A DNA stretch of 64,000 nucleotides from assembly GCF_055900595.2 (NCBI RefSeq), contig NZ_CM148325.1. The stretch is one strand, 5' to 3'. Shown here piece by piece: positions 20,917-23,021 of the stretch. Each line of letters begins with the position of its first letter. Position 1 is the stretch's first letter. The notes beneath the pieces were generated by a model, which saw only the letters and a program-made list of their open reading frames with translations, searched no databases and was not told the DNA's origin. Both the position numbers and the translations under genes were made by a program.

Positions 20917-21426
20917 TTAGTTGCCCCGCAGCAGACGCATCATGTCTTCTTGCTTCTCGTCTTCTTCCTCTTCTTCGTCATCGTCATAAGAGAGGCCGAG
21001 TTTCTGCATCAACTCATCAATACGATCCAGTTTGGCATCCACCCAGGATTGCTCTTCGGCGCTCAGGGTTTCGCCTGCCTCCAGACGTTCCAGCAGCGCA
21101 TCCAGACGCTCATCCGTTTCCAGTAACTCCAACTCCGCCTGCGGTGAAAGCATAGGTTTCTCACTCTTCGGTTTGTGCTGTTTGGTGACTTTTTCAGTCA
21201 CGCCCAATGGAATAGGGGTTTTACTGCCAATACGTGGATCTTTCGGTGCGTTCTGGCCTTTGCTGCCTGACGTGGTGTTACCGCCCGCTGCGCGGCTGCC
21301 CGGCGCATGACCACGACGTTTTTTCTGACGCTTACGGTCACGAGCTTCCTGATCCAGCTCCTCGCGTGTTTTTCGACGCGCTTTTGCATGACCTTTGCTG
21401 CGTGAGTTTGAAGATGATGGTTTCAT
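20917..21426 (-). CDS. yihI: Der GTPase-activating protein YihI
   Basis: 169 aa from [19 protein letters not shown]; basic N-terminus and acidic C-terminus. The ORF track's upstream extension overlaps csrC and is rejected. Confidence 0.9.
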
Positions 21427-21492
21427 AATGGTTCGTCTTTTAGCCGTTTTATTCAGTATAGATTTGCGGCGGAATCTAACAGAAAGCAAGCA

Positions 21493-21737
21493 AAGAAAAA
21501 AGGCGACAGATTACTCTGTCGCCTTTTTTCCTGACTCATAACCCTTAACGGGTCTTACAATCCTTGCAGGCCGCCAACACACCCTGTTTTTCCATTAGCC
21601 GGAACAATCCGTGTTGATTCCATTTCCGTTTAATTACGTCTCCGGACGTTTGTCTTCCTGACAATCCTCTGTCTTCGCCTCCTGGCGCTCCTGACCCTCA
21701 TCCTGAGTCATTGTTCCTGTTAGCGTCCTCGCTCTAT
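21493..21737 (-). ncRNA. csrC: CsrC small RNA (CsrA-sequestering)
   Basis: - strand begins ATAGAGCGAGGACGCTAACAGG, carries many GGA motifs (AGGATGAGGGTCAGGAGCGCCAGGAGG...) and ends in the ggcgacagagtaatctgtcgcc hairpin plus T-tract. Confidence 0.8.
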
Positions 21738-22007
21738 GGGTGCTACTTTACGCCTTTGCTTTAAACAAACAATCAACCGCCATCAGTATTTGCACATTTT
21801 CAGAGTTTTATATAAAAGCAATTAACTGATTTATATAGCTTATTTGACATGCATCGCAGAATTTTCTCTGCTATTTCGCATAAAGACTATCGGCAATGTC
21901 TCACAAAGCGTATGGCTTTTACTTACAACGCTCACGCCGAAAAATCCGCCTTTTATTATGGTTCAGGTATAATCACCGCAAAGCTTTGACTGACGGAGAC
22001 GACCGCT

Positions 22008-22640
22008 TTGACTAATTTGAATTATCAACAGACGCATTTTGTGATGAGTGCGCCTGATATTCGCCACCTACCTTCCGATACCGGAATTGAAGTGGCTTTT
22101 GCAGGCCGTTCCAACGCAGGTAAATCCAGCGCGCTGAACACGCTGACTAACCAGAAAAGCCTGGCGCGGACCTCAAAAACCCCAGGGCGCACCCAGCTTA
22201 TCAACCTGTTTGAAGTGGCTGACGGCAAGCGTCTGGTTGACCTGCCCGGCTATGGCTACGCGGAAGTCCCGGAAGAGATGAAGCGCAAATGGCAACGCGC
22301 GCTCGGCGAGTACCTCGAAAAACGTCAGAGCCTGCAAGGCCTGGTGGTACTCATGGATATTCGCCATCCGCTGAAAGATTTGGATCAGCAGATGATTGAG
22401 TGGGCGGTAGACAGTAATATCGCCGTACTGGTGCTGCTGACCAAAGCGGACAAACTGGCAAGCGGCGCACGTAAAGCACAATTGAATATGGTGCGTGAAG
22501 CAGTGCTGGCGTTTAACGGTGATGTGCAGGTTGAAACGTTCTCTTCGCTGAAGAAGCAAGGCGTGGACAAGCTGCGGCAGAAACTGGATACCTGGTTTAG
22601 CGAGATGCAGCCTGTAAAAGAAACGCAGGACGGCGAATAA
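22008..22640 (+). CDS. engB: Ribosome biogenesis GTP-binding protein EngB/YihA
   Basis: 210-aa ORF beginning at a TTG codon (MTNLNYQQ); G-motifs GRSNAGKSS and DLPGYG. Confidence 0.9.
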
Positions 22641-22650
22641 TTTTCTTGCC

Positions 22651-22740
22651 TTAATGCTTGTGCCGGATGTGGCGTATCCGGCCCGTAAATTCAATAGATT
22701 ACACTTCTACCGTTGGCCTGATAATCAGTGCGCATCAGGC
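22651..22740. repeat. REP elements
   Basis: gccggatgtggcgtatccggcc and ggcctgataatcagtgcgcatcaggc palindromes. Confidence 0.7.
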
Positions 22741-22765
22741 ATTACGGATCTTTTCTTTCGCCCAA

Positions 22766-22874
22766 TAAAAAACGCCCCAGTCATTACTGACTGGGGCGGC
22801 TAAAATATTCAGCCAAATCCGATTACGTGAAGTAAAAGGTCTGAAAGATAGAACATCTTACCTCTGTACCCTAC
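22766..22874 (-). ncRNA. spf: Spot 42 small RNA
   Basis: - strand reads GTAGGGTACAGAGGTAAGATGTTCTATCTTTCAGACC...GCCCCAGTCAGTAATGACTGGGGCGTTTTTTA, which I recognise as Spot 42 including its terminator. Confidence 0.9.
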
Positions 22875-23021
22875 GCGACTAACTTTACTCTTTTTTGTTC
22901 AGTTCAGAAAGCATTTTTTGTAATTTTTTTTCAGTTGTTGCATAGGAATTTCTAATAGCCATCACAAAACGTGACAGCTTATGTTGCTTACTTACGAAAA
23001 AAGGGCATGTTCAGGCGAATC

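Follow-up and report, generated by a model that had tools for sequence, protein, structure and literature searches.

Evidence for a genuine TTG start codon in Escherichia coli yihA/engB, kept as a non-ATG start across enteric bacteria

The GTPase gene yihA/engB begins at the TTG codon at positions 22008-22010 of the DNA analysed here, the genuine and only significant start of the gene, and this codon very probably serves Shine-Dalgarno (SD)-led initiation on an open leader at a modest constitutive rate rather than as a regulatory switch. This DNA, called the window, is a 64,000-nucleotide stretch of contig NZ_CM148325.1 (RefSeq assembly GCF_055900595.2), and coordinates refer to it unless K-12 is named. 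A first-pass annotation made from the sequence alone had proposed that engB initiates at TTG 22008, and the proposal is borne out by genome annotation, published start-site profiling, published N-terminal proteomics and comparative tests. The TTG start of engB is already known, being curated in K-12 and experimentally verified in 2016. The small additions made here are a control test based on leucine codons and the reading of the non-AUG start as a derived trait kept across the enteric lineage.

Results

Identity and setting of the gene

The coding sequence at 22008-22640 (+) is E. coli yihA/engB, lying in the polA - spf - yihA (engB) - csrC - yihI region with the orientation reversed relative to K-12. 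The features used in the analysis are as follows (TetRP, tetracycline-inhibited ribosome profiling).

22008..22640, + strand: coding sequence of the ribosome-biogenesis GTPase yihA/engB, 210 aa plus stop (open reading frame, TIGR03598 and 1PUI match)
22008..22010, + strand: TTG initiation codon of yihA/engB, decoded as fMet (sequence, annotation, TetRP, N-terminal peptide, conservation)
21987..21989, + strand: in-frame TGA closing the frame upstream of the start, 7 codons upstream of the TTG
22041..22046, + strand: in-frame GTG (codon 12, 22041-22043) and ATG (codon 13, 22044-22046), 33-36 nt downstream of the TTG
21995..21998, + strand: SD core GGAG, separated from the TTG by a 9-nt spacer (-6.6 kcal/mol pairing with the 16S 3' tail; fixed distance in orthologs)
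21968..21973, + strand: putative engB -10 box TATAAT, followed by a GC-rich discriminator (21974-21980); found by conservation, with the leader length deduced from it

The translated protein scored 252.2 bits against the NCBIfam model TIGR03598 (YihA/YsxC equivalog; cutoff 124.45), with EngB residues 10-193 aligned to profile positions 2-185 of 186, and residues 1-210 matched PDB 1PUI with a single visible difference, K205 in the window versus E205 in 1PUI. The GTPase motifs G1, DLPGYG and G4 (TKADK) could be read directly in the translation, and the gene order polA - spf - yihA - csrC - yihI - hemN places the gene in the same enteric context as in K-12. GTPase activity and binding to pre-50S particles have been described for YihA (preprint 10.64898/2026.02.15.706057). 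A 1.2-kb query from this locus found matches in 5,425 of 5,426 complete E. coli genomes, with eight at 100% identity among the matches listed.

Several side observations were made at this locus. Two of the 5,433 match places sit on records labelled as plasmids, which may be mislabelled replicons or misassemblies. Codon 205 (22620-22622) encodes Lys in the window and Glu in both K-12 and PDB 1PUI, within the C-terminal tail, which is not conserved. Divergent from engB lies the gene for the sRNA CsrC (Rfam match of 277.9 bits, 21484-21737, -), over which PGAP has placed a pseudo-CDS in NZ_CM128605.1 ('hypothetical protein, frameshifted; internal stop', window 21545-21711) that looks like an annotation artefact. 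On the 3' side, REP-like palindromes seen by eye only, such as GCCGGATGTGGCGTATCCGGC and GGCCTGATAATCAGTGCGCATCAGGC, occupy approximately 22655-22750 between the engB stop and spf, and could serve engB as an mRNA 3' stabiliser or terminator. The Spot 42 sRNA gene (spf) follows at 22766-22884 (-; Rfam, 122.8 bits) with its terminator at 22798-22773, and the 48-nt CDS inside it (window 22809-22856) corresponds to the dual-function small protein SpfP annotated in K-12 (b4837).

The reading frame and existing annotation agree on TTG 22008

The six codons between the upstream TGA and the TTG (CTG ACG GAG ACG ACC GCT) include no ATG, GTG or TTG, which leaves TTG 22008 as the sole start codon able to give the N-terminus MTNLNYQQ, just as the first-pass annotation had read it. 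The further remark in that annotation, that the vicinity offers no in-frame ATG or GTG, was mistaken, since the GTG at 22041 and the ATG at 22044 are both in frame only 33-36 nt downstream; a second in-frame TTG, codon 4, is at 22017. The RefSeq/PGAP yihA CDS begins at window position 22008. The curated K-12 MG1655 gene (b3865, 4050133-4050765, complement, 633 nt, NP_418301.3) begins at the same TTG, and the K-12 sequence at the start is identical (GACGGAGACGACCGCT-TTG-ACTAATTTG).

Published experiments place initiation at the TTG and not at codon 13

A competing possibility is that translation starts at ATG 22044 (codon 13), the position annotated in 2006, or at both sites to give 198-aa and 210-aa isoforms. 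The presence of ATG and GTG in frame at codons 12-13 makes such a start conceivable, the shorter 198-aa form still reaches 246 bits with TIGR03598, and in the 2006 K-12 record U00096.2 yihA (198 aa) began at this ATG, an annotation that stood until the 2014 revision moved the right end of the gene from 4048752 to 4048788 in corrected coordinates (PMC4909307 Table S3). Nakahigashi et al. (2016, DNA Res 23:193; PMC4909307) determined initiation sites genome-wide by TetRP combined with COFRADIC enrichment of N-terminal peptides. Row 57 of their Table S2 (yihA) gives TTG as a new start 36 nt upstream of the 2006 start, coinciding with the 2014 annotation. TetRP depth at the TTG was 181.2/190.3/152.7, the highest among 28 rows of that table, versus 0/0.36/0 at the 2006 ATG. 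An N-terminal yihA peptide was recovered in six samples, beginning both at the initiator Met and at residue 2, while the 2006 start yielded none (Table S4). The study thereby shows that the TTG is decoded as Met. Thus the N-terminal proteomics that the first-pass annotation had suggested as a check is already in print and agrees with the TTG start.

Other sources were consulted as well. The N-terminomics supplement of PMC13245402 (TRAINSPOTTER) has no entry for yihA, engB or TNLNYQQ, and in the EcoGene 3.0 paper yihA appears solely among uncharacterised y-genes, with nothing on its start. PDB 1PUI was rejected as evidence for the N-terminus, as it derives from a recombinant full-length construct that followed the annotation and is not independent.

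Ribosome binding and comparative tests single out the same codon

The 9-nt spacer between the GGAG and TTG 22008 falls inside the 5-10 nt range taken as the criterion for a bacterial SD. The predicted SD duplex with the 16S 3' tail at TTG 22008 has an energy of -6.6 kcal/mol, versus -0.1 to +0.4 kcal/mol at the alternative codons CTG 21990, TTG 22017, GTG 22041 and ATG 22044, the last of which therefore has no SD (+0.4 kcal/mol). Among 400 TTG triplets drawn at random from the window, only 2.5% had SD pairing as strong as that of engB, which puts the TTG start well beyond chance, and duplex energies lie between -5.9 and -7.4 kcal/mol across all 81 enteric taxa compared.

The comparative set drew on Enterobacteriaceae and Pantoea and consisted of 80 orthologous loci, the proteins being 85-99% identical among the matches listed. 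The start column of the alignment contains TTG in 74 and GTG in 7 of the 81 enteric taxa (73 and 7 in the 80 orthologous loci) and nothing else, neither ATG nor a Leu codon that is not a start codon. The seven GTG loci belong to six Enterobacter and to Silvania. As a control, 22 conserved internal Leu columns were taken from the same alignment; TTG makes up 6.5% of their codons and reaches at most 19 of 81 in any one column, and each column drifts among synonymous codons, with all six Leu codons in play. The start column is restricted to TTG and GTG while the internal Leu codons drift, showing that column 1 behaves as a start codon and not as leucine. Comparing a start column with internal Leu codons in this way is a cheap and general means of validating UUG starts by sequence alone.

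The other candidate codons behave differently. Codon 4, TTG in the window, is TGG in 41 of the 81 taxa; codon 12, GTG in the window, is GTC in 40; and codon 13, ATG in the window, is ACC in 47, so that none of the three is a conserved start across the 81 taxa. From the TTG onward, codon positions 1/2/3 are conserved at 0.94/0.93/0.75, whereas the values upstream are flat (0.50/0.56/0.50), i.e. three-base periodicity starts at the TTG and is absent before it. The distance from the upstream in-frame stop to the start, 7 codons in the window, ranges from 5 to 75 codons among orthologs, which also indicates that the stretch upstream of the TTG is not coding.

The residues added by the TTG start are themselves conserved over long distances. 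Orthologs at 43-58% identity retain the N-terminal motif, e.g. MSLSYNQATFLTSA, MKYQQAEFLTSA and MAVNYQAAQFLTSA, the segment NYQxxxFxxSA is conserved across distant EngB proteins with residues 4-14 retained in distant orthologs, and the TIGR03598 profile begins at EngB residue 10, upstream of Met13. Together these show that the 12 residues added by the TTG start are part of the ancestral protein, and that the older codon-13 start was a mis-annotation because the first 12 residues belong to this conserved N-terminal segment. With near-zero TetRP depth, no N-terminal peptide, no SD and a codon that is ACC in 47 of the 81 taxa, the codon-13 start is already refuted for standard growth conditions, and we consider any contribution from it, alone or beside the TTG, extremely improbable.

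The engB start is an example of how easily a real UUG start is overlooked, as K-12 carried the wrong codon-13 start until 2014. That error loses 12 residues, some of them within the segment conserved in distant orthologs. Automatic gene calls of near-identical EngB proteins, among the best 120 homologous proteins, range from 190 to 263 aa; mis-calls of the engB start are common in public databases, as upstream extensions as well as downstream truncations. The nearby gene yihI (20917-21489, -) presents the opposite case. Its longest ORF runs from a TTG at 21489 (190 aa) and its annotated start is the ATG at 21426 (169 aa, MKPSSS...); the upstream TTG falls inside the CsrC gene and terminator, so that a 'first TTG' rule fails at yihI.

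The leader offers no sign of regulated translation

The first-pass annotation had also suggested that the weak start codon means low or regulated translation of this essential GTPase. This claim is for the most part unsupported. A mild, constitutive down-tuning fits the evolutionary pattern described in the next section, whereas the regulatory half is disfavoured by the canonical status of UUG, the strong conserved SD and the lack of leader structure.

Conditional regulation could in principle act through discrimination by initiation factors, a structured leader or translation coupled to an upstream ORF, and each of these has some feature in its favour. UUG is weaker than AUG in reporters (10.1101/063800). 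The minimum free energy fold pairs the 5' end of the E. coli leader with GCUUU overlapping the start codon. An in-frame 46-aa ORF (21849-21989) ends 18 nt before the TTG. None of the three routes held up. Initiation factor IF3 reportedly accepts AUG, GUG and UUG alike, with its discrimination falling on codons such as the AUU of infC (Sussman, Simons and Simons 1996). The fold of the E. coli engB leader is not significant (z = -1.77, with 10 of 200 shuffled sequences folding as well), and RNAalifold on 20 genera found 0 conserved base pairs in the leader; together these leave nothing that points to regulated translation, and the idea of a structured leader or thermosensor was rejected. The 46-aa ORF was rejected as a coupled upstream ORF because codon periodicity is absent from it, its stop shifts position among orthologs, and most of it precedes the conserved -10 box. 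We therefore judge it very unlikely that the TTG makes engB translation conditionally regulated.

The promoter region suggests where regulation would act, if there is any. All 80 loci carry a putative -10 box 37-45 nt ahead of the start (TATAAT in 72, TATACT in 8), giving a probable engB leader of about 28 nt. The promoter core GTTCAGG-TATAAT (window region 21961-21980) is conserved in all 80 loci and has a weak -35, which explains why a sigma-70 consensus scan did not report an engB promoter. The 7-nt discriminator averages 83% GC versus 48% further upstream, while its sequence varies. A GC-rich discriminator is the kind of signature carried by stringent or growth-rate-controlled promoters, and engB may have such a promoter. 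If engB is regulated, this conserved element would point to transcription, through growth-rate or stringent control, rather than to translation.

A non-ATG start has been kept throughout the enteric lineage

UUG is one of three canonical start codons and is used by ~3% of E. coli genes; reporters that start with it reach 10-100% of AUG initiation (Hecht et al., 10.1101/063800). Across all E. coli genes, protein abundance does not differ according to whether a gene starts with AUG or with UUG (p = 0.755; Belinky et al. 2017, PMC5622118), and the genome-wide switch values of UUG starts in the same study are 0.0174 to AUG and 0.0142 to GUG. The canonical status of UUG, the lack of an abundance difference and the TetRP depth of yihA all speak against reading the codon as a sign of low or regulated translation. 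At the engB locus, 5,422 of the 5,426 E. coli genomes carry the 30-nt core from SD to codon 5 unchanged, and no ATG or GTG variant of the otherwise identical 61-mer was found among the 5,426. The first base of the start codon has a major allele frequency of 0.914, above that of 73 among 78 four-fold degenerate sites in engB (median 0.59). ATG is the start codon of 10 of 11 distant orthologs, and the remaining one, CP061275.1, has TTG. The retention of a non-ATG start by 81 enteric taxa and by nearly all E. coli genomes (5,422 of 5,426), versus ATG in 10 of 11 distant orthologs, fits a mild constitutive down-tuning of engB, and the pattern as a whole fits a constitutive limit on expression, not regulation.

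The distant orthologs are 50%-identity representatives, as the best 120 homologous proteins are all enteric with at least 83% identity. The direction of change from ATG to TTG is read from just 11 distant orthologs on unlabelled metagenomic contigs, and intermediate Enterobacterales such as Yersinia, Serratia and Proteus lie outside the sample. CP061275.1 is an endosymbiont-like genome of 617 kb with 23% GC, which retains the TTG start in front of the N-terminus LRSLNYQK. Its engB adjoins a 286-aa polA remnant reduced to the 5'-3' exonuclease domains, so polA and engB have stayed linked through genome reduction.

A stronger reading of the same pattern is that selection actively keeps the non-AUG start as an expression limiter, because excess EngB would be harmful and TTG to ATG changes would be purged in enterics. 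The absence of ATG from all 81 enteric taxa, where the only switches are to GTG, itself sub-optimal, would be expected under such selection and runs counter to the genome-wide UUG trend, in which switches to AUG are at least as frequent as those to GUG (PMC5622118). The conservation of the first base of the start codon over most four-fold sites, the lack of ATG or GTG variants among E. coli genomes and the TTG of the reduced CP061275.1 genome are in line with it. A cost of excess is also plausible, as YihA acts as a placeholder on early pre-50S particles, where it forms a steric block to the L1 stalk, to the central helices and to uL2 (preprint 10.64898/2026.02.15.706057). Set against this, 5 of the 78 neutral sites (~6%) are equally conserved and the taxa are not independent, making the conservation signal only suggestive; 10 of 11 distant orthologs tolerate ATG; and the strong conserved SD speaks against pressure to minimise initiation. 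We hold active selection for a limiter to be possible but doubtful. Its fullest form, in which the UUG/GUG start would be a derived, lineage-specific limiter under purifying selection in Enterobacteriaceae, Erwiniaceae and at least one reduced endosymbiont, and surplus EngB would stall large-subunit assembly, is a speculative proposal that we think rather unlikely to hold as a whole. If the limiter reading is true, replacing the TTG with ATG would bring a measurable fitness cost.

Discussion

Our preferred reading is ordinary SD-led initiation at TTG 22008 on an open leader. The conserved GGAG, 9 nt upstream of the TTG, positions the 30S subunit on a short unstructured leader, probably of ~28 nt, where initiator tRNA reads the UUG as fMet to give the 210-aa GTPase starting MTNLNYQQ. 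The UUG is probably a derived trait of the enteric lineage that replaced an AUG-type start, and its combination with a good SD may set a modest, constitutive initiation rate that suits a sub-stoichiometric assembly factor. The word modest is our inference, and the comparatively high TetRP depth of engB means that the start codon may not limit expression much. That an essential assembly GTPase has long kept a non-AUG start is a small and testable hint that its dosage matters, and opens no major question.

The closest relative is yihA/engB of K-12 itself (b3865, NP_418301.3; PDB 1PUI), the same gene with the same start codon and 210 aa, identical from the SD through codon 20. Relative to it the window has K205 for E205 and a few upstream polymorphisms, such as CACCGC in the window versus CGCCAC in K-12 after the -10 box, and the start is identical. 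Non-enteric EngB/YsxC orthologs (43-58% identity; B. subtilis YsxC, PDB 1SUL) belong to the same equivalog family and have the same N-terminal strand motif before the G1 loop. In contrast to the enteric genes, 10 of the 11 sampled start with ATG, so that UUG/GUG appears specific to the Enterobacteriaceae/Erwiniaceae lineage plus one endosymbiont-like genome.

Another useful comparison is infC, which encodes IF3 and, like engB, is an essential translation-related gene with a non-AUG start; it supplies the model for equating a weak start codon with regulated translation. The AUU start of infC is a non-canonical codon against which IF3 discriminates, and this closes a feedback loop. Unlike AUU, the UUG of engB belongs to the canonical class in which AUG, GUG and UUG are grouped (10.1101/063800), and unlike IF3, EngB is not an initiation factor, with neither feedback logic nor a conserved leader structure found for its gene. 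With a start codon that is not non-canonical and a leader without conserved structure, engB is unlike genes under infC-type regulation.

The engB start more closely resembles those of ybeZ, yliA and ftsH, which were re-annotated to UUG by TetRP (PMC4909307). At each of these genes the upstream UUG with its SD is real and a downstream ATG had been chosen earlier, and lacZ fusions in the same study showed that such UUG starts 'function efficiently'. Unlike the ybeZ-type cases, engB was outside the lacZ-fusion tests and draws its published support from TetRP and the N-terminal peptide. To the evidence in PMC4909307 the present analysis adds a cross-genus conservation test for engB.
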